DNA of 63,760 nucleotides, filler included, from Actinomycetota bacterium (GCA_025963875.1; 5 parts of 5 records of this genome joined end to end with filler, not necessarily neighbours in it); one strand, 5' to 3'. Shown: positions 31,719-55,804, counted from the whole stretch's first letter. Numbers and translations: made by a program. The notes: generated by a model from the sequence alone, not told the origin.

Positions 31719-31818
31719 NNNNNNNNNNNNNNNNNNNNNNNNNNNNNNNNNNNNNNNNNNNNTTAATTAATTAANNNNNNNNNNNNNNNNNNNNNNNNNN
31801 NNNNNNNNNNNNNNNNNN
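31719..31818. other. Artificial contig linker
   Basis: N44-TTAATTAATTAA-N44. Confidence 0.98.
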
Positions 31819-37394: not shown

Positions 37395-37494
37395 NNNNNN
37401 NNNNNNNNNNNNNNNNNNNNNNNNNNNNNNNNNNNNNNTTAATTAATTAANNNNNNNNNNNNNNNNNNNNNNNNNNNNNNNNNNNNNNNNNNNN
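37395..37494. other. Artificial contig linker
   Basis: N run with TTAATTAATTAA. Confidence 0.98.
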
Positions 37495-37842
37495 GAAGCG
37501 CTGACGGCCCTGCGCAACCTCTGGTCGGACACCGGTCGCGAGCGTGACTTCGTCCAGGGCGAAGCCGAGCGGTCCGGCCGGGCGACGATGGAAGACATCA
37601 TCGGCAAGGTTGGCTACGGGGATCTCGAGCACTTCGCCGAAGGTGAGGCCACGACCGACACCCACGCCGCCGGCCAGCGACTCAGCGCCGCGTGGAAGAA
37701 GACGATGCAGCGCGAAGGCAAGATCGTCCACGAGGGCACGTCCATGGCCGACCTCATGCGTGGCAAACGGTTGGAGGAAGGCGTCAAGGGCGGCAATCAG
37801 GAGAAGCCGCCGTGGGAGAGCGACGAGAGCGGCGACGAATAG
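37495..37842 (+). CDS. Hypothetical protein, 3' part (5' cut by gap)
   Basis: Frame open from the contig start; high-GC codon bias. Confidence 0.6.
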   Translation, partial: EALTALRNLWSDTGRERDFVQGEAERSGRATMEDIIGKVGYGDLEHFAEGEATTDTHAAGQRLSAAWKKTMQREGKIVHEGTSMADLMRGKRLEEGVKGGNQEKPPWESDESGDE

Positions 37843-37918
37843 GGCGTCTGCATTGCGCCGGCAACGAGGCGGCGCTACAGTGAGGAGTCTTGGGGGTCAT
37901 CGATCAGGAGGTGCAAAG

Positions 37919-38176
37919 GTGGGACTGTTGGGACGCAAGAGGAGCAACGGTGGCGAATCGGAAGCGCCCGCTACCGCACCGCGGCCGACCGGAATCCCCG
38001 ACTACGGGTTCAACCAGCCGAAGTCGGCCGCCCCGAAAGCCGTGACCGACCTGCTCAAGCAGACCTCGTACCCCCAGGGCGCCGAGGGGTTCGCCCGCTT
38101 CTCGGGTCGGGAGAGGACCACAAGCTACCAGTCGCAGTCCGGCTGGTCCCGCCACACCTACGACACCATCAACTAA
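37919..38176 (+). CDS. Small hypothetical protein (85 aa)
   Basis: AGGAGG RBS, GTG start, GC3-rich codons, followed by a terminator. Confidence 0.65.
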   Translation: MGLLGRKRSNGGESEAPATAPRPTGIPDYGFNQPKSAAPKAVTDLLKQTSYPQGAEGFARFSGRERTTSYQSQSGWSRHTYDTIN

Positions 38177-38190
38177 CTTCTCGGAAGTTC

Positions 38191-38228
38191 CAAAGCGGAT
38201 GGCCTCCGGGCCATCCGCTTTGTTGTTT
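38191..38228 (+). terminator. Intrinsic terminator
   Basis: CAAAGCGGATGGCC-TCCG-GGCCATCCGCTTTG followed by TTGTTT. Confidence 0.85.
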
Positions 38229-38308
38229 CCCGATTGTTTCGCGGCGCCCCGGTAGCATGGCTTTACAGGCGAGATCTACGAGCGCGATAGCGGGGTGAGC
38301 CAAGGTCC

Positions 38309-41300
38309 ATGCCAAACCGACTGCAGCACGAGACCAGCCCGTATCTGCTTCAGCACGCCTCGAACCCGGTGGACTGGTACCCCTGGGGAGACGAGGCGTG
38401 GGCGAGGGCGGTGGCCGAGGACAAGCCCGTGCTGGTCTCCATCGGCTATGCCAGCTGCCACTGGTGCCACGTCATGGAACGGGAGTCATTTGCCGACCCC
38501 GAGATCGCCGGGCTGCTCAACAAGCACTTCGTCTCGATCAAGGTGGACCGTGAGGAACGGCCCGACCTCGACGCCCTCTACATCGAGGCCCTCCAGACCC
38601 TTACGGGGTCGGCCGGGTGGCCCCTCACCCTCTTCCTCACCCCCGAGCGCAAGCTCTTCTTCGGCGGGACGTACTTCCCACCGACCGCGCGCGACGAGCT
38701 GCCGTCCTTCCGGGCGGTTATCGAGTCGGTCACCGATGAGTGGAGGGACAGCCGGCGCGATCTCGAGCGCCAGGCGGACGGCGTGCTGCGCGAGATGCGG
38801 GAGCGGGACACGACCCTGCCGGAGCGCCAGGCCCTCAGCGCGGAGCTGCTCGACCAGGGGATCATCCGCATCCTGTCCACGGCCGACCAGGTCCACGGCG
38901 GCTTCGGCGAGCCACCGAAGTTCCCCCAGCCCTGGCTGGTCGAGCTCATGCTGCGGGCCTCGGCCCGGGGGCCAGGCGGGGCGCACGGCGTCGCCGACCT
39001 GACGCTCCGGCGGATGGCCCGCGGTGGGATCTACGACCAACTCGGCGGCGGCTTCCACCGCTACGCGGTCGACGGCGCCTGGCGGGTGCCCCACTTCGAG
39101 AAGATGCTGTACGACAACGCTCTCCTCGCCCGCCTCTACACCCACGCCTGGCAGGCGCGCCACGACCCGCTCTTCCAACGGATCGCGGTCGAGACGCTGG
39201 AGTACCTCGTGCGGGATCTCGGCGCCGCCGAGGGCGGCTTCTTCGCCGGGCAGGACTCCGAGTCCGACGGCGTCGAAGGGGCCTACTACCTGTGGAGCCA
39301 CGACGAGTTCACCGGGGTGGCGCCGGATGCGGCCGCCTGGTTCGGGGTGGCGCCCGAGGGCAACGACGAGGGCGGCCTGAACATCCTCATCGCAGCCGGG
39401 GACGCACCGCCGGCGGCACAGCGGGCCGCGCTCGCAGCGGCCCGGTCGAAGCGGGTGCGGCCCGGCCGGGACGAGAAGGTGCTCACGTCGTGGAACGGTC
39501 TCGCCATCGCCGCCCTGGCCGAGGCGGGGGCCGTCTTCGAGCGGCCGGATTTCGTCGAGGCCGCCAGGCGCGCCGCAGGCTTCCTGCTGGATCACGTCGT
39601 GACCAGGGGAGGCGGACTGGCGCACGCATGGCAGGCCGGCGCCGCCAGGGGGACCGGGCTCGCCGAAGACTACGTCTACCTGGCGGACGGATTGGTCACG
39701 CTGTGGGAGGCCACCTTCGAGCCCACCTGGGCGGAGGCGGCGCAGCGTCTCGCCGGCAAGCTGCTGGAGCTGTTCTGGGACCCCGACGGCGGCGGGCTGT
39801 TCTCGACCAGCGAGGAGGGCGAACAGTTGGTCGTCCGGCGCAAGGACCTCGTCGACTCGATCACCCCCTCCTCGAACGGGGTCGCAGCCCTGCTGTTCCA
39901 GCGCCTGGGCGTGCTGGTTGGGGACGAGGAGCTCATCAAGCGGGGCGTCGAGATCCTGGAGGCGGCTCAGCCCGTGATGCAGGCGGTCCCGCAGGAGTCG
40001 GGGACCCTCTTCGCCGCCCTGGATTTCCATCTGTCCGGCGCCAAGGAGATCGCCGTGATCGGCGACCCTGCAGCCGCCGGGACCGCGGCGCTGCTCCGTG
40101 AGGTGTGGAACCGGTACCTCCCCAACCGCGTGCTGGCGGGCGGGCCGGGGGCCGCCGGTGGAACCACACTTCTGTCGCCGCTCTTGGCCGGCCGGACCGA
40201 GGTCAACGACATGCCCACCGGCTTCGTCTGCGAGCACGCCACCTGCAAGCGGCCCGTGAACGACCCCGCCGAGTTCGCCCGCCAGCTGCGGGTTCCCGGC
40301 CCGCCGGCCTCGGAGACCGTCAACCGTGCGGCACAGCTCGCCCGCTTCACGCTGCACCGCATGTCTCTCTTCGACCTGCTGGACAACCCGCTGTGGATCG
40401 ACCCGCTCAAGGAACGGGGCTTCTTCTCGACGCCACCCGCCCCCATCGACCAGTACGTGCCGGGGGCCATGGGCGCCCCGCCGTGGCCCGACTCGAAGTA
40501 CCTGGCACGGATGGCGGGCGTCGACCCCTTCGCCGTACACCGGGTGGCCATGGAGATCCCGGAGACCGACAACTCGCTGGTCCACGAGGACCTTGCCGAC
40601 GCTGCCCTGGCGCTGCCGCCCGACCTCGCCGCCGACTTCGCCGTCAGGGCCAAGCGGTGGCTCAGCGCATCGCCGTACCACGTGATGCTGCCGAAGAAAC
40701 TCGGCAGCCTGATGTCGAACCTCGCCAGCAAGGGCCACGGCGGCGAGGCCCTCGACCTCGCCCGGTCCCTCCTCGAGCTGCTCCCGGACGAGGGCGGCGA
40801 GGCCCCGGTCGCCACCGACGAAGGTTTCGCCCTCCCGCCGGTCCCCCACGCCCGCTTCGGCAACTGGGACTACGAGCAGATCCTGAAGGAGAACGTCCCC
40901 GACGTCGTCAAGGCCGCCGGCCTGCCCGCCCTCGATCTGCTGTGCGACCTGCTGGGGTCCGCACTCGAGTTCTCTTCTCCCGGGCCGGCTTCTTCTTCGG
41001 CCGACGGCTCGTTCCTCTGGCGCCCCGCAATCGAGGACGACCCCCGCAATCTGGACCGTTCGTTGCGAAACTCCCTGGTCTCGGCGGTACGGGATGCTGC
41101 GACGAGCATCGCCCGGGAGAATCCCGGCATCCTCCCCGACCTGTTCGACCACCTGGCGCGCCGGGAATGGCCGGTCTTCGTGCGCATCGGCCTGCACCTT
41201 GTCCGGCAGTTCCCCGAGGATGCTCCCGGCTTTGCGGCGGCCCGGCTCTCGGAGCGGACCTACCTGACCGACCCGCACTACAGCCGGGAGTACCTCCTCC

Positions 41301-43069
41301 TCGCCCGCCAGCACCTGGCGTCCCTCGCCGACGAGCAGCGCGAGCAGCTCCTGGCGTGGGTGAACGAGGGGCCGGACCTCGCACGATGGGACCCGGTCCC
41401 GAACCGTTGGGACAGCGATCCCGAGGACCGGATCGATGCGGAAGAGTTCGCCCACGCCTGGACCGCTTCGCGCATCGCCCTCCTCACCAACGTCGAGGGG
41501 GTCTCGCTCGACGCTGCGTTCGCCTTCCCGCTGCAGGATCCCCCCGTCGACCTGACCACGCCGAAGCAGGCCGAGTGGTTGCGGACCTCGGAGCCCGCGA
41601 GCATCGTGCGATTCGCCAGGACGTGGCGGGCGCCGGGGATGATCGGCGCCCCGACGGCCGCCGGGCTCTGCAAGAAGCTCGTCGAGGTCATCACCACCGA
41701 GCCCGGGCGATTCGCCTCGGAGGCCCCGGCGTTCGCCGGCCTCCCGGACGACGAGCTCCGAGCCGTGATCATCGGCCTGCGGGAGGCGACCAAGCAGGGC
41801 GTCGTCACGTTTGACTGGGGGCCGGTGCTGGATCTGCTGCGCGTCGCGGCCACCCGATCGGAGTCTTCCGACGAGTCGGGCCGGGCGCTGCGCATCAGCG
41901 TGGCCCGTCTGCTTGCGACCGGCTTTGCCAACGGAGCCGGCGAGATCCCAAGCTCGGCTCGCAGCCAGGTATGGGACATCGTCCGGCCGATCGCCATGCC
42001 CGAGGCGGCCGGCTCCGGGGATCCAGAGGGCACCGGCCAGGTGCGGCGCAGCGTCGCTGCCGACGGCTTGCAGGCTGTCGTGCGCTACGCCCTGTGGGTG
42101 CGGCGCCAGATCGAGGGCCAGCCCGGCGGCCGGCAGCTCGCCCGAACCGGTTGGGACCAGATGCCCGAGGTCAGAGAGGTCCTGGAGGCGCACCTCGCCC
42201 CAGGGCGGGCGGCAACGCCTGAGGTGCAGGCGGTCTTCGGGCAGTGGTTCCCGTGGCTGCTCATGCTGGATCCTGCCTGGGCGGCCGGCCAGCGGGGGGC
42301 CGTCTTCCCGGCCGAGGCGACGCTGGACCACCTGCGCCAGGCCGCCTGGGACAGCTATCTGGCGGTGTCGCCGGTGTTCGATCAGGTCTTCGAACTGCTG
42401 TCGTCGGACTACGAGCGGGCCGCGTCGAGCATCGTGCCGGACGAGGGCCTGACCCGGCCGCAGCAGGGCCTTGCGGAACACCTCGTTGCCCTCTACCTGC
42501 GGGGACGGGTGCCGCTGGAGGAACCGGACAGCCTGCTGGCCGGCTTCTTCGAGAAGGCATCGTCGTTCCAGCGGGCACACGCCCTCGCGTGGGTGGGCCA
42601 GATGGTGCAGAGCCAGCAGGACCGGATCCCCCACGAGGTCATCCGCCGGCTCCAGGAGCTGTGGGAGAACCGGCTCGCGGTGGCCCAGCAAGCGGACAAT
42701 CCCGATGCCCATGCCGAGGAGCTGGCCCAGTTCGGCACCTGGTTCGCTTCGGGCAAGTTCGACGGCCCGTGGGCGCTCGCCCAGCTGCTGGCGTTGCTGA
42801 ACCTGACGGGCCGGGTTGGCAACACGAGCAAGGTCGTGGACCGCCTCAAGACCTACATGGACACGATGCCCTACGAGGTAGCCCAGTGCATCGCCGTGCT
42901 GGTCGCCAACGAGCGGGGTGCCATCACCATCCTCGGGTGGGGCCAGGACGCCCAGCAGATGCTGGGCCGCATCGTCGGGGGCTCGGATGCCCGGGCCCGG
43001 GACATTGCACTGGACCTGCTCGACACCTTCGACCTGCAGCCGGTCACCGAGCTGATCCGCTGGTCGTAG
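38309..43069 (+). CDS. YyaL/SSP411 (thioredoxin + alpha/alpha barrel) protein fused to a ~925-aa unknown C-terminal region
   Basis: [43 protein letters not shown]; the YyaL part ends near aa 660 but the ORF runs to 1586 aa. Confidence 0.9.
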
Positions 43070-43150
43070 GCCGACCGGGGGCTGTGGTGAAGGCCCCAGT
43101 GCCGAGAAGGTTTCCTTACACTCGGCTGCTTGGCTGGTGGCGGGTACGAG

Positions 43151-43199
43151 CTTCTTTGTATGAATAAACATGATAATGATGCTTAATCATACAAAGAAG
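43151..43199. repeat. AT-rich 49-bp imperfect palindrome
   Basis: CTTCTTTGTATGA...TCATACAAAGAAG 13-bp perfect arms. Confidence 0.85.
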
Positions 43200-43339
43200 A
43201 TTCCATGAGGCTTGAGGTTTGGCGTTTTTTCGTTCGCTGCGAACAAATTCCCTCCGAACCTTCCTCGATACTTCTAGCTAGTACTTCCGACAAAGCCGAA
43301 TCTCAGCCATCCCACAGCTTCAACCCGCATAATGTGGCA

Positions 43340-44704
43340 GTGACTGATTCGCTGGACGCGCCGCGCCCCGACCCCGCGGCTGCAGGAGACCCACCCCTGA
43401 CCCCCCCGCCCCCCGAAGGGTCCGCCGCGCCCTCCGTCGACGATCCAGGGAAGTCAGGTACCAAATCCGTGCTATCCGCGGAAAAGGTACCGGACGTCTC
43501 CACGCCGGCCCCAGCGGAACCCGCCGCCGAGAAGGCGGAGGCGCCCCCGGCCCCGGAGGCATCACCGCCTGTGGCCGAAGAGCCGCCGGCAGCCGCTGTC
43601 GCCGAGGCACCCCCAGCCCCAGAGACACCCTCGGTCGAGGAGGCACCGCCGCTCCCGGAGGCACCGCCGCCGCCCGTCCCGAAGCCACCACCGCCAGCCC
43701 CTGTTGCGGAGGAGCCGCCAGCCGTCGCCTCGCCACCCGAGTCGCCAACCCCAGCAGAGGCCCCCGCACCACCGGCGGAACCAGCCGCAGGGGTACCAGG
43801 GGCGGTTGCCGCTTCAGTTCCGGCGGCCCTCGCCGCCGAGGCACCGGCCGCCGCAGAGGCACCGGCCCCGGCCCCGCCAGCCCCGGCTCCCAAGCCAAAA
43901 CCCAAGCCCAAAGCTGCGGCCCCCCCGCCGCCACCACCGCCGCCCAAGAGAGGCTTCGTCAGCAACTTCTTCAGGCCCCCCGGCGGCCCGGTCAAGGTGG
44001 CCCAGCGGGTGGGCATTCTCGTCCTTGGGGTTGTCATCCTCGCCACCATCGGGGTCGCCGGCTCGGCGGTCATCGGTGGTAGCTCCAAGGGCCCCGCCAA
44101 CCCGAGTCCGACCGTCTCCCAGACCTCACCCTCGGCCTCGCCCAGCGGGCCCAGCTTCATCACCGTCCAAGATCCCGTCAACCAGTTCAGCATCTCCCGG
44201 CCAGACGGCTGGGTGGCGCGGGGCCTCGTCTCGCCCGACCCCAACATCGCCATGATCGTCGGCCCCGACGCCCCCTACCCCAACGCCGACTTCGTCGCCG
44301 TCACAATCCACAAGCTGCCGTTCCCGCTGTCCAACAAGGACCTGCAGCCCTTCAAAGACTTCATCGTGCAGCTCCTCGGCAGCGACATCAACGTCATCAC
44401 GCAGGCGCCGTCTCCGATCATCAACGGCCACGCTGGCGAGTTCCTCACGTGGTCGTATCCGAAGGCGGCCCCCACCACGCTGCACCAGGCCTACTACCTG
44501 ATCGACGGGGATCGCTTCGTCACCATCCTGCTGCAGATCGAGCCGGCGACGGACTCCACCAGCCTGGCCAACCTGGCCCCCGTGTTCCAGTCGATGGCCC
44601 AGAGCTTCAAGAGCTACCACACGACGCCGTCGCCCACGGCAACCGTGACGAGCCCAACCACGTCGACGGGGACGCCGAAACCGGCCACTTCACCCAGCCA
44701 CTAG
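43340..44704 (+). CDS. Pro/Ala/Glu-rich single-TM membrane protein with a PsbP/Mog1-like extracellular domain (tentative)
   Basis: ~200-aa low-complexity N-terminus, TM ILVLGVVILATIGVAG, C-terminal FSISRPDGW...FQSMAQSF; GTG start 6 nt after CATAAT. Confidence 0.7.
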   Translation: MTDSLDAPRPDPAAAGDPPLTPPPPEGSAAPSVDDPGKSGTKSVLSAEKVPDVSTPAPAEPAAEKAEAPPAPEASPPVAEEPPAAAVAEAPPAPETPSVEEAPPLPEAPPPPVPKPPPPAPVAEEPPAVASPPESPTPAEAPAPPAEPAAGVPGAVAASVPAALAAEAPAAAEAPAPAPPAPAPKPKPKPKAAAPPPPPPPPKRGFVSNFFRPPGGPVKVAQRVGILVLGVVILATIGVAGSAVIGGSSKGPANPSPTVSQTSPSASPSGPSFITVQDPVNQFSISRPDGWVARGLVSPDPNIAMIVGPDAPYPNADFVAVTIHKLPFPLSNKDLQPFKDFIVQLLGSDINVITQAPSPIINGHAGEFLTWSYPKAAPTTLHQAYYLIDGDRFVTILLQIEPATDSTSLANLAPVFQSMAQSFKSYHTTPSPTATVTSPTTSTGTPKPATSPSH

Positions 44705-45053
44705 GCCGAGGTGCAGATCACGTCCAGCTTCGCCCCCGCCTCGGGGGTCACGGTGACCGAGCTGTCGGACAGGCAGAGCACCCTGCCGACCGAGGCGCTC
44801 AAGAAGTAGGTGCCGGCCGGCACCAGGATTGTGAAGACGCCGTCGGAGCCGGCCTGGGCCGTGCCCGCCACCGGGCCGTTGACGCTGCCGGAGTGAGCCT
44901 CGACCTTCCCGGCCGTCGGCTGGTCGGGGTCCCCGGCGACGGTGCCGATGGTGACGAGTGTCCCCCGGATCGTGGCGTTGCGCGGCGCTCCGCAGGCCGA
45001 CGCCAGCAGGACCAGGGCCACCGTCCTGGCCCCGAGCCGGGCCCAGGAACCGG

Positions 45054-45057
<4 letters not shown>
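44701..45057 (-). CDS. Small putative lipoprotein (beta-sandwich, carboxypeptidase-regulatory-like)
   Basis: VALVLLASA-C lipobox, GSDGVFTILVPAGTYFL; start uncertain, overlaps the coxL stop. Confidence 0.6.
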
Positions 45058-47397
<2,340 letters not shown>

Positions 47398-47408
<11 letters not shown>

Positions 47409-47976
47409 CACGGCCCCCATGTGCACCCTGAGCACCGTGCGACCCGCCCTGGGAGGGTCCAGGGGCGGCGTTGGCAGCCAGGATGGCGCCCATGCCCGTC
47501 GGGGCAGGGCCCGTCGCCCTCATCTTGTCGGCGGCCCACTGGACCGCCCTCACGATGTTGGCGTACCCGGTGCAGCGGCAGATGTTGCCCGACAGCGCCC
47601 ACCGGATCTCGTCCTCGGTGGGGTCGGGATTGGAGGTCAGCAGGGCGATGGAGGCGAGCACCATGCCCGGCGTACAGAATCCGCACTGGAGGGCGAAGCA
47701 TTCCTTGAAGCCCTCCTGGACCGGGTTGAGGTGCCCATGCGGTGCGAGGCCCTCCACGGTGGTGATCTCGCGGCCGGCCGCCTGGACGGAAAACAGGCCG
47801 CATGACTTCACCGCCATCCCGTCGAGGAGGACGGTGCAGGCGCCGCAGGTCGTGGTGTCGCAGCCGATCTGGGTGCCGGTGAGGCGCAGGAGGTCGCGCA
47901 GGTAGTGGACGAGGAGCAGCCGAGGCTCAACGTCCGCTTCTACCGGCTGGCCGTTGACCCCCAGTGAGATGTGCAT
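47398..47976 (-). CDS. coxS: CO dehydrogenase small subunit (2x[2Fe-2S])
   Basis: [28 protein letters not shown]. Confidence 0.93.
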
Positions 47977-48156
47977 GGTTGGTGGTTCCCCCCTGCAGCG
48001 GACAGGATACGCCTCTCAGCGCCCGAGGAGACCTCTTCGAAGAGAGGCTGGTGACCCCGAATGGGCGTACGCGAGTACTGTGCCTTTTGTCCTTGAGTGG
48101 ACCGTCGTGAGTGGACGCCGTATCATTTAGTACCAGTCTTATAGGAAAAATCGGCC

Positions 48157-48843
48157 ATGCAGGAACTCTTTGTCGGAGTTTCCGAGGTAGCGGAACGCCT
48201 CGGAGTCAGTTCCGACACCGTGACCCGATGGTGCCGTCAGGGGCGAATCCCCGGCATCAAACCGGGCCGCGACTGGAGAGTCCCGGCATCGGTGGCCGAG
48301 GATCTTCTCGCCGGGCGTCCCGCCCGTTTCTGGACGGCGGATCTCGAGCCCCAGCTCGCACGCCTGCACACCTCCGACCACGTCCTGGTCCTGGTACCGG
48401 GGGGCGTGAAGGAGGCGAGAGCCTTCCGGGGCGTCCTCCTCGAGATGGGCAAGGGCACGGCAACGCCCGAGCCGCCGTCGCCTCCCGTCGGCAAGCTGTT
48501 CGCCCAGGCGATGCTGCTGGCCGGGGCCCGGGCGCTGGCCCGGCGCGAGGTCTCCATCGCGGAGTCGCCCCCCGCCTCGCCCTCGGAATGGCTCATCCGA
48601 TGGGTCGGGCGCCTCGGCACGGAAACCCTCGCCACCGAGAGCAGCGTCGCCCGGGCCGCCGAGGATGCCGGCCGGGTGATCTTCTGCCTCCTGCCGCTGT
48701 CGGGCGACCCCGACCTCGTCGAGCACGATCCCGATCTCGCCGGTCTCGTCGAGGCCCACACCCACATCCTCGTCGGCCAGGCGCACGGACGGTCCTGGCT
48801 GGGCAGCGCCCGAGCCGGCGCCCGCCTGGCGGGCGTAAGCTAG
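48157..48843 (+). CDS. Excisionase-type (HTH_17) DNA-binding protein with putative MEDS-like sensory domain
   Basis: VSEVAERLGVSSDTVTRWCRQGRIPGIK.G..WRV; C-terminal DHV...IFCL...AHTHILV pattern. Confidence 0.7.
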   Translation: MQELFVGVSEVAERLGVSSDTVTRWCRQGRIPGIKPGRDWRVPASVAEDLLAGRPARFWTADLEPQLARLHTSDHVLVLVPGGVKEARAFRGVLLEMGKGTATPEPPSPPVGKLFAQAMLLAGARALARREVSIAESPPASPSEWLIRWVGRLGTETLATESSVARAAEDAGRVIFCLLPLSGDPDLVEHDPDLAGLVEAHTHILVGQAHGRSWLGSARAGARLAGVS

Positions 48844-48846
48844 GCC

Positions 48847-49722
48847 GTGTACCCAGGGCGCTTCGCCTATCACCTTCCCGACTCCCTCCACGAGGCAGTC
48901 GGTAACCTCGAGCGCGGCGGCGGTGACGCCCGGGTGCTCGCGGGTGGCCAGAGCCTGATCCGCCTCATGCGGTTCCGGTACGAGTCGCCCAGCCACCTGG
49001 TGGACCTGCGCAACCTCGGCCTGTCGGGCATCGACGAATTCGGTGGCCGGCTCCGGATCGGGGCGACCACCACCGACGCCTTCCTGGAGACCTCGCCCAC
49101 GATCGGCAACAACTACCCGCTGATCGCCGACGTGGCCCGGGTGATCGCCGACCCGCTGGTCCGCAACCTCGCCACCATCGGCGGCTCCGCCGCCTACGCC
49201 CATCCGTCCGGCGACTGGGGCCCGGCCCTCATGGCCGCCCGTGCGACGTTCACGGCCGTCGGCCCCGGTGGCCAGCGGAGCATCCCGGCCGACCAGTTCT
49301 TCGTCGGCAGCTTCTGCACGGCGCTGGGGGCCGCCGAGATCCTGACCGGGATCGAGCTGTCGGGGCTCAGCAACGGTGGCGGGGCCTACATGAAGCTGCA
49401 CCGCAAGATCGGCGATTTCGCCACCGTCGGGGTCGCCGTCCAGCTCACGGTGGATGCGGACGGCAAGGTGAGCGACTGCGGCATCGGCATGTCCGGCGTC
49501 GCCCTGTCGTACGTGCGGGCATCGAAAGCCGAGGAGTACCTCGTCGGCCGAACGCTCGACCGCGACAGCCTCCGCCGGGGATCGGGCATCGCATCCGAGG
49601 AGACCCACCCGGTGAAGGATGCCAGGGGCTCGGCGATCTACAAGCGGGAGATGGTCAAGGTCCTCTGCCGACACGCCCTCGAGACGGCCGCCCAGCGGGC
49701 CGGCGTCGAGCTCGAAGACTGA
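48847..49722 (+). CDS. coxM: CO dehydrogenase medium (FAD) subunit
   Basis: MYPGRFAYH.P, AGGQSL, IADPLVRNLATIGG, RKIGDFA. Confidence 0.92.
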   Translation: MYPGRFAYHLPDSLHEAVGNLERGGGDARVLAGGQSLIRLMRFRYESPSHLVDLRNLGLSGIDEFGGRLRIGATTTDAFLETSPTIGNNYPLIADVARVIADPLVRNLATIGGSAAYAHPSGDWGPALMAARATFTAVGPGGQRSIPADQFFVGSFCTALGAAEILTGIELSGLSNGGGAYMKLHRKIGDFATVGVAVQLTVDADGKVSDCGIGMSGVALSYVRASKAEEYLVGRTLDRDSLRRGSGIASEETHPVKDARGSAIYKREMVKVLCRHALETAAQRAGVELED

Positions 49723-49944
49723 GCCACCGGCCCGCAAAGGTCCGATCTCGCGAGACATTCATCCCGGTCGAATTCGGTTCCCGGGGATGCCACAATGGCG
49801 GGGGGGCGTCGCTGAACCGGAGAGCGGGAGATCCGGCGGTGCAGTCTGGTATTCCGGGGACGGAAGGTTCGGGCTGCAGACCGACGCGCAGGTGCGAAGC
49901 CGCCATCGAATTCCGGGGCTTTGACCTGCTGGAAGGGACAGGCC

Positions 49945-52731
49945 ATGGAGCGAGACGCTAGGGGGCGTGACGTGGAGCTGGCGGTCTCTGCCCGCTTCCT
50001 CGACGCCCTCCAGAGCGGGCCGCGCGCCCTCGTCCTCGCCGGCGAGGCCGGCATCGGCAAGACCACCCTCTGGAAGCAGGTGCTCGCCGAGGCGCGAGCC
50101 CGTTCCTACTGGGTGCTCACCTGCCGGCCGACCCAGTCCGAGACCGCCCTCTCCTTCGCGGCGCTGGCCGACCTGCTCGCCGAGGTCCCGCCGGACGTCC
50201 TTGGCCGCCTGCCCGGACCCCAGCAGCGGGGGCTCCAGGTGGCGCTGCTGAAGGCCGAGCCCGAGGAAGCCGCGCGAGACCACCGGGCGATCTCGGCGGG
50301 GCTGCTCTCCGTGCTGAGCGAGCTTGCCTCGCGCGCCCCCGTCCTGGTGGGGATCGACGACCTTCGGTGGCTCGACCGGCCCTCCGCGCGGGTTCTGGAG
50401 TTCGCGGTGCGGCGATTCGGCGGCTTGCGGGCGGGCCTGGTGGCCACGATGCGGACCCCCGACGAGGAGGTGCTGCCGCTGGGCCTCGCCGAGGCTCTGT
50501 CACCGGACCAGCTCGACCGGGTGGAGGTCGGCCCGCTCGCCCCCGACGTGCTGCACCGCATCGTGCGGGAGCAGATCGGGATTGCGGTGCCCAGGCCGAC
50601 GCTGGTGCGGATCCAGCAGGCCTCGGGGGGCAATCCCCTGTTCGCCCTGGAGATCGCACGCTCGGTCAATCGTGCCGGGACCCGCATGAGCGGCAGCCAT
50701 GTGCCCGTCCCCCACCACGTCGGCGACATGGTGGCCGAGCGTATCGAGGCCCTGTCGCCCGGGGCCCGCGAGCAGCTCCTCGTCACCTCGGCACTGGCGA
50801 GCCCCACCATCGAGCTCGTCACGACCGCAGGTGGGCCGGGCACCGCCGAGGGACTCGCCGAGGCCGAGGAGGCGGGGGTGGTGGAGCTGGAGGGAGGCCG
50901 GATCCGCTTCGCCCACCCGCTGCTCGCCTCCGCCGTGTACTCGTCCGCCACCCCGGAACGCCGCCGGCGGCTCCACGCCCACATCGCGGAGGTCGTCACC
51001 GACATCGAGGAGAAGGCCCGCCACCTGGCGCTCAGCCACCTGGAGCCCGACGAGGCCGTCGCAGCGGTGATGGACGCCGGCGCCGAGCGGGCCGACGCCA
51101 GGGGAGCCCCCAGTGCCGCCGGCGAGCTGGCCGAGCATGCGCGTTCTCTCACGCCGTCCAGCCGCGGCGACGAACTGGCCAGGCGCACCATCGCCGCCGC
51201 GTCGTACCACGTGGCCTCGGGGGACCGAAAGCGTGCCCGGGCCCTGCTCGAGGAGCTCGTCGCCACCCTGCCGGCCGGGGTTCGCCGGGGGGACGCCCTC
51301 CGTATCCTCGGAGAGATCCGCTACCAGGACGACAGCTTCCCCGAGGCGGTACGCGTCTGGCGCCAGGCCCTCGAGGAGGCAGGGGACGACACCCGCCTGC
51401 GCGCCACGCTGGAGACCTACCTGGCGTATGCGGACCTGATGATGGCGGACTTCCGCAGCGCGAAACCGCATGCCTGGGCGGCCTTGGAGCTGGCGGAGAA
51501 ACTGGGCGATCCAGGAACCCACGCAGAGGCACTCGCCGTCGTCTCCCTTGTCGAATTGGGCAAGGGAACATCGGCGGAAAGGATCCGCCAGGCGCTCAGC
51601 CTGGAGGACCCGAACCACAGGCTTCCCGTCGGCAGACGGCCGAGCCTCATCATCGCCACCATCTTCTGCTGGGAGGAACGCCTCGAGGAGGCCGCGGAGC
51701 GCTTCGCCTGGGTCCACCGCCAGATCCGTGACCGGGGCGAGGACAGCGAGCTCCCCTACCTGGCGCTCCCCATGGCGTGGAACGAGGTCTGGCGCGGCCA
51801 CCTCGCGGTGGCGGCGCGCCTGGCGGAAGCGAGCCTGGAGACGTCCCTGGAGCTCGGCGACCGTGCCATGATCGCCACATCGCTCGCGACGATGGCCCTC
51901 GTCCACGCCTACCAGGGCAGACCCGACGAGGCGCGGCGCGAGGCCGAAGAGGCGACTGCGGGCTTCCGGCAGGCGGGGTGGACGACCTTCACGGTGCTGG
52001 CCATTCAGCCGCTGGGGCTGCTGAGCCTGTCCCTCGGCGACTTCGAGGGCGTCCACCGCACACTCGGGCCGCTCGTGGACGTCGCCTCGCAGATGTGCGC
52101 CCGGGAACCACTGGGCGCTGCGTTCCTGGCCGACGAGATCGAGGCCCTCGTGGGGCTGGGCGATCTCGGCCGGGCGCACGCGCTCATCGATCAGCTCGAG
52201 ACGAGTGCACGCGCCCGCGACCGCGCCTGGGGACTCGGGGCGGCTGCCCGGTGCCGGGGGCTGGCCATCGCCGCCACCGGGGACCTCGACGGCGCCGCCG
52301 CGGCGCTGGACGAGGCGGTCCGCCAGCACGCGCGCCTGCCCATGCCGTTCGAGCTCGCCCGCACCCTGGTCGCGAGGGGGCAGGTCCAGCGCCGGCGCAA
52401 GGAGCGCCTTGCCGCGAAGCAGTCCCTCGAGGAGGCGATCGACATCTTTGCGTCGAGGGGAGCGGTCCTGTGGGCCGAGCGTGCCCGCCTCGAACTCGGC
52501 CGGCTGGGACTGCGTCCGGGCGACGGTCACGGCCTCACGAAGACCGAGCGCCGGGTGGCCGAGATGGTGGCGTCCGGGCTCACCAACCGCGAGGTGGCCG
52601 CCCAGCTCTTCATCAGCCCGAGGACCGTGGAAGCCAACCTCTCGAAGATCTACAGCAAGTTCGGGGTCCGGTCCCGGACGGAACTGGCGGCCAGGATGGC
52701 GGAACGGCTGCAACTGCCGGGGCGGGTCTAA
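49945..52731 (+). CDS. LAL-family (AAA ATPase-TPR-LuxR) transcriptional regulator
   Basis: GEAGIGKT, IDDLRWLD, GGNPLF, C-terminal LTNREVAAQLFISPRTVE. Confidence 0.93.
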   Translation: MERDARGRDVELAVSARFLDALQSGPRALVLAGEAGIGKTTLWKQVLAEARARSYWVLTCRPTQSETALSFAALADLLAEVPPDVLGRLPGPQQRGLQVALLKAEPEEAARDHRAISAGLLSVLSELASRAPVLVGIDDLRWLDRPSARVLEFAVRRFGGLRAGLVATMRTPDEEVLPLGLAEALSPDQLDRVEVGPLAPDVLHRIVREQIGIAVPRPTLVRIQQASGGNPLFALEIARSVNRAGTRMSGSHVPVPHHVGDMVAERIEALSPGAREQLLVTSALASPTIELVTTAGGPGTAEGLAEAEEAGVVELEGGRIRFAHPLLASAVYSSATPERRRRLHAHIAEVVTDIEEKARHLALSHLEPDEAVAAVMDAGAERADARGAPSAAGELAEHARSLTPSSRGDELARRTIAAASYHVASGDRKRARALLEELVATLPAGVRRGDALRILGEIRYQDDSFPEAVRVWRQALEEAGDDTRLRATLETYLAYADLMMADFRSAKPHAWAALELAEKLGDPGTHAEALAVVSLVELGKGTSAERIRQALSLEDPNHRLPVGRRPSLIIATIFCWEERLEEAAERFAWVHRQIRDRGEDSELPYLALPMAWNEVWRGHLAVAARLAEASLETSLELGDRAMIATSLATMALVHAYQGRPDEARREAEEATAGFRQAGWTTFTVLAIQPLGLLSLSLGDFEGVHRTLGPLVDVASQMCAREPLGAAFLADEIEALVGLGDLGRAHALIDQLETSARARDRAWGLGAAARCRGLAIAATGDLDGAAAALDEAVRQHARLPMPFELARTLVARGQVQRRRKERLAAKQSLEEAIDIFASRGAVLWAERARLELGRLGLRPGDGHGLTKTERRVAEMVASGLTNREVAAQLFISPRTVEANLSKIYSKFGVRSRTELAARMAERLQLPGRV

Positions 52732-52861
52732 GCACAATACCCATAAGTTATAGTCTGCGAGAAGAGTTCTGATGGCTCCGAGGGTGCCTGTTGATCAATT
52801 CTCTGGCTGGTCAATGGCGATCTCCACCTCATCGATGCCGCTGGTGCTGGGCGAGTAGTTG

Positions 52862-52961
52862 NNNNNNNNNNNNNNNNNNNNNNNNNNNNNNNNNNNNNNN
52901 NNNNNTTAATTAATTAANNNNNNNNNNNNNNNNNNNNNNNNNNNNNNNNNNNNNNNNNNNN
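52862..52961. other. Artificial contig linker
   Basis: N run with TTAATTAATTAA. Confidence 0.98.
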
Positions 52962-55704: not shown

Positions 55705-55804
55705 NNNNNNNNNNNNNNNNNNNNNNNNNNNNNNNNNNNNNNNNNNNNTTAATTAATTAANNNNNNNNNNNNNNNNNNNNNNNNNNNNNNNNNNNNNNNN
55801 NNNN
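55705..55804. other. Artificial contig linker
   Basis: N run with TTAATTAATTAA. Confidence 0.98.

Follow-up and report, generated by a model that had tools for sequence, protein, structure and literature searches.

It has been reported that Avs7 and Dsr1 share a bilobed sensor which binds the HK97-fold major capsid protein of phage, and that capsid binding by this sensor switches on the effector situated at the N-terminus of the protein (PMC13581612, PMC12803255). The main texts of these reports count 9,097 proteins that carry the sensor, their N-terminal effectors comprising NADases, nucleases, kinases, a HEPN-like RNase and several unknowns (PMC13581612, PMC12803255), and the family is described there as having spread by horizontal transfer (PMC13581612, Nature 2026). 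Here we describe a gene of an Actinomycetota bacterium (GCA_025963875.1), located at 38309..43069 on the + strand of a 63,760-nt stretch of DNA (filler included; hereafter the window, meaning the whole stretch analysed), which joins a complete YyaL enzyme to an alpha-solenoid sensor of this same family. The fusion arose once, occurs in a single order, and is accompanied by a small upstream gene. We favour the view that a sensor has been domesticated here, the solenoid targeting or regulating the barrel of YyaL, over the view that the protein is an immune receptor, while allowing our preferred reading about an even prospect of being right.

The fusion gene starts with ATG and encodes 1586 aa according to the listing of open reading frames (ORFs). 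Its first part is a thioredoxin-like domain (38309..38797, + strand, aa 1-163) with CHWC at aa 50-53, matched over aa 3-163 by the Pfam family Thioredox_DsbH (PF03190, formerly DUF255) with an E-value of 6.9e-72 and 241.2 bits against a cut-off of 27, and this is followed by the (alpha/alpha) barrel part (38798..40288, + strand, aa 164-660), delimited by alignment to plain YyaLs. Ordinary YyaL proteins of 650-700 aa cover aa 1-660 completely (100%), the nearest ones being from Actinomycetota with 55-57% identity, and the window protein retains 142 of the 153 columns in which 113 plain YyaLs show a conservation of at least 97%, so that the complete YyaL ending at about aa 660 that had been proposed in an initial annotation of this DNA is borne out. 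The YyaL/SPATA20 family is conserved from bacteria to humans, and its ordinary members (YyaL, SSP411, SPATA20) are proteins of approximately 670 aa made of a DUF255 thioredoxin domain and a six-hairpin barrel. The same plan, CHWC included, is found in aa 1-660 of the window protein, with the DUF255 domain, the CxxC and full-length collinearity all present, whereas the two-domain-only architecture of about 670 aa is not, a 926-aa module being attached. No biochemical function for YyaL, SPATA20 or DUF255 was found in the published literature searched.

The attached module (40289..43069 including the stop codon, + strand, aa 661-1586), identified by PADLOC and by a structural model as a Dsr1/Avs7-type alpha-solenoid sensor, starts at about aa 661, straight after YyaL and without a linker, as the first residues of stand-alone homologs fall on aa 660-666 when aligned. 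The C-terminal motifs quoted in the initial annotation do occur, at aa 687, 726, 750 and 1471, although the module begins ahead of the first of them, and its description as a Trp-rich helical module holds for the helices but not for the tryptophan, the content of which (2.8%) is close to that of the YyaL part (2.6%). The PADLOC model for Dsr1, PDLC04166, matches the C-terminal part with an E-value of 1.2e-23 (aa 1096-1480 against profile positions 746-1121); all 15 relatives scanned match the same model with E-values from 1.3e-18 to 1.8e-60, several of them spanning positions of about 293-1225 of the 1227 in the profile, i.e. the whole non-SIR2 region. The NCBIfam Dsr1 equivalog, NF041818, gave only 18.8 bits against a cut-off of 1400. 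Because this score is far under the cut-off while PDLC04166 is matched, the protein itself is not Dsr1, though its module is the Dsr1 sensor. An AlphaFold2 model of the module, based on an alignment of 24 sequences, is entirely helical with a mean predicted local distance difference test score (pLDDT) of 83.2, and its structural neighbours are HEAT/ARM solenoids, namely CAND1 (Z 16.0), the PP2A A subunit (Z 15.0) and importins (Z of about 13) in the VIA search. Foldseek, which had been suggested as a check on the C-terminal module, likewise returned generic HEAT/ARM solenoids, the best query TM-score among its rows being 0.37 for the Avs4 phage-portal sensor; no Avs7 or Dsr1 structure was among the Foldseek and VIA rows, and the sensor profile matched only design constructs among PDB sequences (E >= 0.12), with no sequence-related solved structure. 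The modelled fold suggests a protein-binding module akin to cargo- or scaffold-binding HEAT/ARM proteins. The window sensor also keeps the residues that are invariant in the whole family, which occupy 46 columns of the sensor alignment (A1).

Compared with Dsr1, the window protein is alike in its C-terminal alpha-solenoid of about 930 aa, which is homologous, and in the order of an N-terminal enzyme followed by a C-terminal sensor. It is unlike Dsr1 in that no SIR2 family appears in a Pfam scan at E <= 1, the N-terminus being a complete YyaL, and in that the fusion is chromosomal, lineage-fixed, outside defence islands and accompanied by the gene of a small, apparently disordered protein. With Avs7 it would share the sensor superfamily by way of Dsr1, which rests on the statement in the main texts of the two reports that both systems have the same sensor (PMC13581612, PMC12803255), whereas no STAND NTPase was found in Pfam, NCBIfam or PADLOC scans of the fusion protein. 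Judged by its sequence, the fusion protein is a member of the Avs7/Dsr1-sensor superfamily which is neither Dsr1 nor Avs7, and it is a YyaL in sequence but not in architecture. What is new are YyaL as a partner, the fixed, order-wide distribution outside islands, and the linked small gene with its hairpin. The words 'thioredoxin' and 'YyaL' occur in neither of the main texts (preprint, PMC12803255; Nature article, PMC13581612), 'DUF255' and 'SSP411' are absent from the text of the preprint (PMC12803255), and 'epimerase' from that of the Nature article (PMC13581612).

The fusion is one real gene and not an assembly artefact. The window is a chain of contigs from a metagenome-assembled genome (MAG), separate contigs being joined by linkers that consist of a run of N, TTAATTAATTAA and another run of N (31763-31774, 37439-37450, 52906-52917 and 55749-55760), and it might thus be asked if the two halves were brought together by chimeric assembly or belong to a decaying pseudogene, an explanation which we consider to have practically no chance of being correct. 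The fusion gene's own contig extends from about 37495 to 52860, so that the nearest linker lies 2.8 kb away from the junction between YyaL and the module (nt 40288), and this junction is spanned without gaps by contigs from two soil-metagenome runs of different studies: that of run X1, possibly the source sample, reaches from 39122 to 42007 with 1 difference, and that of run X5 from 40187 to 40938 with 10 differences. Full-length fused frames of 1589-1634 aa are present in ten other Actinomycetota MAG records, with five more cut by contig ends; the fused gene is found in 18 species-level genomes, and PF03190 is present in 20 of 64 protein-collection matches to the C-terminal part. Confirming the junction in reads and in other genomes had been proposed in the initial annotation, and its further claim of an in-frame continuation with uniform codon bias agrees with the translation of the ORF, which has zero internal stops and no frameshift, with the GC content at third codon positions (0.921 in the YyaL part vs 0.903 in the C-terminal part), and with a flat GC content of 0.69-0.73 along the whole gene. 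Against decay, the ratio of non-synonymous to synonymous substitution (dN/dS; Nei-Gojobori) between the window and locus L039 is 0.10 for the thioredoxin domain, 0.21 for the barrel, 0.24 for the C-terminal module and 0.22 for the small upstream gene, and since these values range from 0.10 to 0.24, all parts are under purifying selection; the comparison with locus L001 was set aside as dS is near saturation there (0.72-0.95). Contigs from an RNA-library run (X18) match 37900-38125 in the small gene as well as three stretches of the sensor, which indicates presence only and says nothing on transcription, its level or termination at the hairpin.

The relatives of the sensor show which partners it takes elsewhere. 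An exhaustive phmmer search with the 926-aa module against 1.84 billion cluster representatives returned 4129 representatives at E <= 0.001, 1783 of them at E <= 1e-30, while a scan for loci with the C-terminal module, using one genome per species, gave 69 loci. Among 203 proteins of at least 880 aa that align over at least 780 query residues, 121 are stand-alone sensors, 59 carry an N-terminal extension of 130-420 aa, 19 have a full YyaL and 4 a YyaL without the thioredoxin domain. The commonest partner is a conserved helical domain of 170-250 aa with an invariant R and E, a nearly invariant H (H..RE) and a further invariant H; in 15 genome loci with a 'stand-alone' sensor this domain is encoded as a separate gene of 230-403 aa immediately upstream. 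Examples are found at L016:9232-9966, L051:9289-10017 and L069:6684-7406 and in the N-termini of P0025-P0059. Foldseek with a model of the helical domain gave nothing at E <= 0.001, and a wide VIA search returned mostly HEPN domains with Z of 6-8, a range common for helical bundles. Of the non-fused relatives, sensors with this domain, fused or split, come nearest to the sensor of the window (30-39% identity); they sit in restriction-modification (R-M) or Tn7-type contexts, and are possibly the 'HEPN-like' Streptomyces type mentioned in the main text of PMC13581612. A split SIR2 gene lies directly upstream of the sensor in L008, L043 and L057, as recognised in L008 by Pfam SIR2_2 and by positions 123-290 of the NCBIfam Dsr1 model, and by the SIR2 regions of the PADLOC models ThsA, Dsr1 or LmuA. 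STAND-type fusions also occur among the relatives, namely the 'ATP-binding proteins' of haloarchaeal plasmids and a 1615-aa protein of Nostoc sp. (L033:7958-12805) in which an N-terminal AAA_35 STAND-type ATPase region is fused to the sensor; the latter is possibly an Avs7-like STAND protein, and no NCBIfam model matches it. Further partners are HTH_3 (L062, L065, P0134) and DUF4062 (L034, L049).

These non-fused relatives live among defence and mobile genes. Of 148 proteins encoded within three genes of the sensor in 29 such loci, 35 have a PADLOC match at E <= 1e-8, and the neighbours include type I R-M genes (7 loci), SIR2, GajA/OLD-like (Gabija-like) and SduA (Shedu-like) proteins, the PD-T4-6 kinase, PDC candidates and the Tn7 protein TniQ, while YyaL is a neighbour in none of the non-fused loci. 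A sensor copy on a Streptomyces plasmid (L079) adjoins TnsA/TnsB/TniB-like genes, and a haloarchaeal plasmid copy, a 1510-aa 'ATP-binding protein', adjoins a transposase and an integrase. The likeness to defence sensors with swappable N-terminal effectors, which the initial annotation had put forward, is thus supported at the level of the family by the PDLC04166 match, by the tally of partners and by the PADLOC matches of the neighbours. The tabulation of N-terminal partners and of defence-island association that had been suggested gave HEPN-like helical, SIR2, STAND ATPase and HTH (helix-turn-helix) partners in defence or mobile contexts for the family, but placed the fused clade outside such islands. 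Likewise, the observations that were to speak against the proposal (a stop or frameshift at the junction, a fusion unique to this assembly, homologs without effector swapping or defence context) were not made for the family as a whole, and only the defence context is absent, for the fused clade itself. As a separate observation, the non-fused sensors of L044, L052 (Pyrinomonadaceae) and L079 lie by Tn7-like genes (TnsD/TniQ, TniB, TnsA-like, Mu-type transposase), in the manner of cargo carried by a transposon.

The YyaL-sensor fusion arose once, and both halves then diverged together. In a phylogeny of the YyaL parts computed by maximum likelihood, the 18 fused proteins stand on one side of a branch with support of 100/99 and in 100% of 200 bootstrap trees, a result with which a quick tree agrees, and in the sensor trees 24 fused rows, of which 19 are full proteins, 4 lack the thioredoxin domain and one, P0067, is a 5'-cut fragment without a starting Met, form one group nested among non-fused members, with support of 97 in one tree and 96/98 in the other. 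The YyaL and the sensor trees agree in a division into two sub-clades, A and B, the window belonging to A. The sensor is present in all five genomes of the family of genome G005, in 18 of the 26 genomes of its order and in 19 of the 112 of its class; the rest of the class (86 genomes) has no fusion, and the sole sensor match outside the order is a 964-aa stand-alone form. These counts include the unpublished genomes G003 and G020 (fused) and G065 (stand-alone), without which they become 4/4, 16/24 and 16/109. There is one copy per genome, and its frame, unless truncated at the end of a contig, measures about 1600 aa. This distribution differs from the patchy, horizontal and island-borne or mobile distribution of proteins with the Avs7/Dsr1 sensor, to which the non-fused relatives do conform.

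With such relatives, the fusion protein could be a lineage-fixed anti-phage receptor in which YyaL is a new effector that is neither a NADase nor a nuclease: the solenoid would bind a phage protein, probably the HK97 capsid, the barrel and thioredoxin domain would be activated or oligomerised and damage a target of host or phage, and the role of the small protein encoded upstream would be that of accessory, inhibitor or guarded bait. We regard this as possible, with a chance appreciably below even. It is favoured by the homology of the sensor to that of Dsr1, by the identical layout of N-terminal effector and C-terminal sensor, by the defence contexts of non-fused relatives at 30-40% identity, and by the ligand and the effector swapping documented for the family in the main texts of the reports (PMC13581612, PMC12803255). 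The surroundings of the fused gene speak against it. A set of 72 neighbours, encoded within five genes of nine fused loci and on the window's contig, was scanned with PADLOC at E <= 1e-8. Six of them matched, in each case via a domain of a generic kind, namely an HTH domain in two, a BioC-like methyltransferase in two more, and an ABC ATPase and an IetA-like AAA ATPase in one each; neither defence nor mobile genes were found there. The neighbours include superoxide dismutase, MoeA, XdhC, BioB/BioF, penicillin-binding protein 1A, penicillin amidase and xanthine-dehydrogenase subunits. Moreover, the near-universal, single-copy and syntenic presence of the gene in one order, with no fusion in the other 86 genomes of the class, is unlike the horizontal spread reported for the family. 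A toxic effect of YyaL, finally, is to our knowledge not on record.

The history of the YyaL half bears on the same question in both directions. A plain YyaL is also present in four of five fusion-bearing genomes, as an open frame of 666-777 aa in three and cut by a contig end in one, and between the same pairs of genomes the identity amounts to 62-67% for the plain YyaLs, 46-53% for the fused YyaL parts and 41-56% for the fused sensors. Thus, compared with ordinary YyaL, the window's is a second copy beside a plain one, has a 926-aa extension and evolves faster. For an anti-phage receptor it counts that the retained plain YyaL would leave the fused copy free for a new role, and that the latter outpaces the plain copy in divergence while family-invariant sensor residues are kept. 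On the other hand, it counts against such a receptor that the sister sub-clade B of fused proteins has lost the thioredoxin active site. The mean share of near-invariant YyaL columns that are kept is 88% in sub-clade A and 69% in sub-clade B; the CxxC is kept in 7-8 of 8 proteins of sub-clade A, its first Cys in only 3 of 10 of sub-clade B, where W52 remains in 2/10, H54 and W104 in 0/10, and the C-terminal Cys pair in 0-1/10. This decay concerns P0015-P0023 and P0068, and in P0012-14 and P0069 the whole thioredoxin domain is missing. The barrel residues D193, D243, E264, K265, N270, R275, R379, R382, D388, N396, E405, D454 and D491 are kept in 18 of 18 fused proteins.

A small gene accompanies the fusion. 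It lies at 37919..38176 on the + strand, encodes 85 aa from a GTG start with AGGAGG 8 nt upstream, and its homologs of 82-149 aa are of low complexity with the invariant motifs (T/S)(S/C)YP ... RTTSY ... YD(T/S)(I/V/L)N (alignment A3), the last of which forms the end of the protein in nine of ten aligned sequences. The Atlas offered no usable relatives for the small protein, and its model of one homolog has a pLDDT of 0.44, which suggests a disordered protein. The small gene is directly upstream of the fusion in all 12 fused loci with upstream DNA, ten of these being strong matches, L009 a weak one (E 0.01) and L053 a match of only 18 aa at a contig edge. A profile of the gene finds it in 17 of 18 fusion-bearing genomes (17/26 of the order, including the unpublished G020) vs none of the 94 class genomes without the fusion, and it stays adjacent in both of the deep sub-clades, between which identity is about 40%, unlike the genes further out, which differ. 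These data show a common birth of small gene and fusion and their joint retention since. Such a strictly linked gene has no counterpart in the known systems of the family, which is a further point against an anti-phage receptor.

Between the small gene and the fusion gene, on the + strand, there is a GC-rich hairpin of 14 pairs (38191-38222, the element extending to 38232) followed by the T-rich tract TTGTTTCCCG. A terminator scan of the window region found 1 such element vs 2.5 expected in shuffled sequence, which alone is not above chance; a strong hairpin of different sequence is present at the same place in all 11 fused loci folded. It looks like a terminator or attenuator. Further upstream, the 3' part of a gene for a small acidic protein, c4, occupies 37498..37842 on the + strand (stop codon 37840-37842), its 5' end being lost in the contig linker. 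It was identified by tblastn with the homolog of L039 (84.5% identity over 37498-37827), measures 129-146 aa in relatives, and is also upstream of the fusion in six other loci (L001, L009, L039, L005, L018 and L046). Pfam has nothing significant for either the small protein or c4.

It may be argued that the solenoid senses nothing and merely serves as a structural scaffold for YyaL, for example in oligomerisation or localisation, with the small genes linked by inherited synteny. The structural matches to generic HEAT/ARM-like folds would fit this, and the neighbourhood is inherited vertically, so adjacency proves little. However, purifying selection acts over all 926 residues of the sensor (dN/dS 0.24) and family-invariant residues are kept, and the small gene is adjacent in both deep sub-clades though the outer genes differ, while it occurs nowhere else in the class. 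We hold this alternative to be very unlikely.

The domestication of a sensor remains our preferred reading, because the population-genetic marks of a defence gene have been lost and a private, co-inherited small partner has been gained. The initial annotation had left the choice between an undescribed sensor-effector and a domesticated sensor regulating YyaL, and the few generic PADLOC matches, the near-universal single copy and the linked small gene lean to the second. In the fusion, a duplicated YyaL enzyme and a complete alpha-solenoid of the Avs7/Dsr1 family follow one another with no linker between them, and the gene has become a single-copy resident of an order of soil Actinomycetota, where it forms part of a cassette that consists, in succession, of the gene of the acidic protein c4, the gene of the small disordered protein, the hairpin and the fusion gene. 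As we envisage it, an ancestral solenoid would have bound phage capsid protein and so switched on its N-terminal enzyme, and in this lineage the sensor would have left the mobile defence pool to be domesticated. The solenoid would act as the protein-recognition or regulatory arm of the YyaL barrel, and its ligand would be cellular, the best candidate being the co-encoded disordered protein, recognised via the TSYP, RTTSY and YDTIN motifs; recognition of linear motifs is common for HEAT/ARM solenoids. The small protein is probably made in excess, as a putative hairpin terminator stands between its gene and that of the fusion. The pocket of the barrel, with its polar residues kept in every fused protein compared, would be the working part, and the thioredoxin site, which is kept in the window's sub-clade A, would be dispensable in sub-clade B. 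A more specific version, in which the solenoid presents the small protein with its TSYP, RTTSY and C-terminal YDTIN motifs to the YyaL barrel for modification, so that a capsid sensor has been exapted into physiology, appears to us unlikely, though well above the scaffold explanation. When residues 1-912 of the solenoid (A1) were co-folded with the small protein (A3), the result was a score of 0.11 against a mark of 0.32, which counts neither way.

Several points weigh against domestication. The layout of N-terminal effector and C-terminal sensor is exactly that of the proven defence proteins of the family, the retained 46 family-invariant columns of the sensor may mean that the ancestral capsid binding persists, and a rate of evolution above that of the plain copy, as seen in the fused paralog, would be in keeping with an immune gene as well. 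A chromosomal, syntenic location is compatible with defence. Eight of the 26 genomes of the order lack the gene, and as the genomes surveyed are MAGs of 1.6-3.6 Mb with completeness not given, the misses may be gaps or the gene may be less fixed than it appears. The co-occurrence of small gene and fusion is restricted to one clade, and because all carriers belong to it, this is one evolutionary event rather than 17 independent ones. Binding of the small protein by the solenoid is a candidate interaction, and YyaL being without known biochemical activity, a sensor that 'targets the barrel' has no defined chemistry.

The fused clade thus breaks both rules of a family that consists of a capsid detector wired to toxic effectors and spread horizontally, since here the sensor is welded to a housekeeping-type enzyme and, along with a new small gene, is fixed, syntenic and single-copy in a whole order. 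If domestication is true, this would clearly exemplify how an immune receptor can be put to new use in recognition, and would offer a route to the function of YyaL/SPATA20. If the small protein is indeed presented to the barrel, YyaL/SPATA20 would have its first substrate class and thereby a first functional handle, and the fusion would be a documented case in which an immune receptor was domesticated to recognise substrates. If, instead, the protein is an immune receptor, YyaL would be a new effector class and the cassette an example of a core-genome defence gene.

As regards the remainder of the neighbourhood, genes before 37396 are not neighbours of the fusion gene because contig linkers intervene, and RadA, YkuD, IspDF (IspD/F) and ProRS, considered as upstream housekeeping neighbours, were dropped once the linkers had been found. 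Downstream genes are common to the window and L001, the sensor of which is 58% identical to the window's. One of the downstream ORFs of the window (43205-44704, + strand) is Pro/Ala-rich with a single hydrophobic segment and a true start that is probably later than 43205; Pfam gave nothing significant for it, and its C-terminal part has 36% identity to the gene that comes next after the fusion in L001. In loci of sub-clade B, the fused gene is followed by two to three genes for single-pass membrane proteins of 89-110 aa that belong to no family (L005:13036-13653, L018:9788-10653, L028:13812-14078), and four genes downstream of the fused gene in L018 there is a 515-aa AAA ATPase (L018:10879-12423) that matches PADLOC IetA models with an E-value of 1.2e-32. 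On the fusion gene's contig, the window also encodes at 49921-52731 (+ strand) a 936-aa LuxR-type regulator with an AAA_16/STAND ATPase, tetratricopeptide repeats and a GerE HTH, the gene of which adjoins those of xanthine-dehydrogenase subunits and a MerR/HTH_17 gene.

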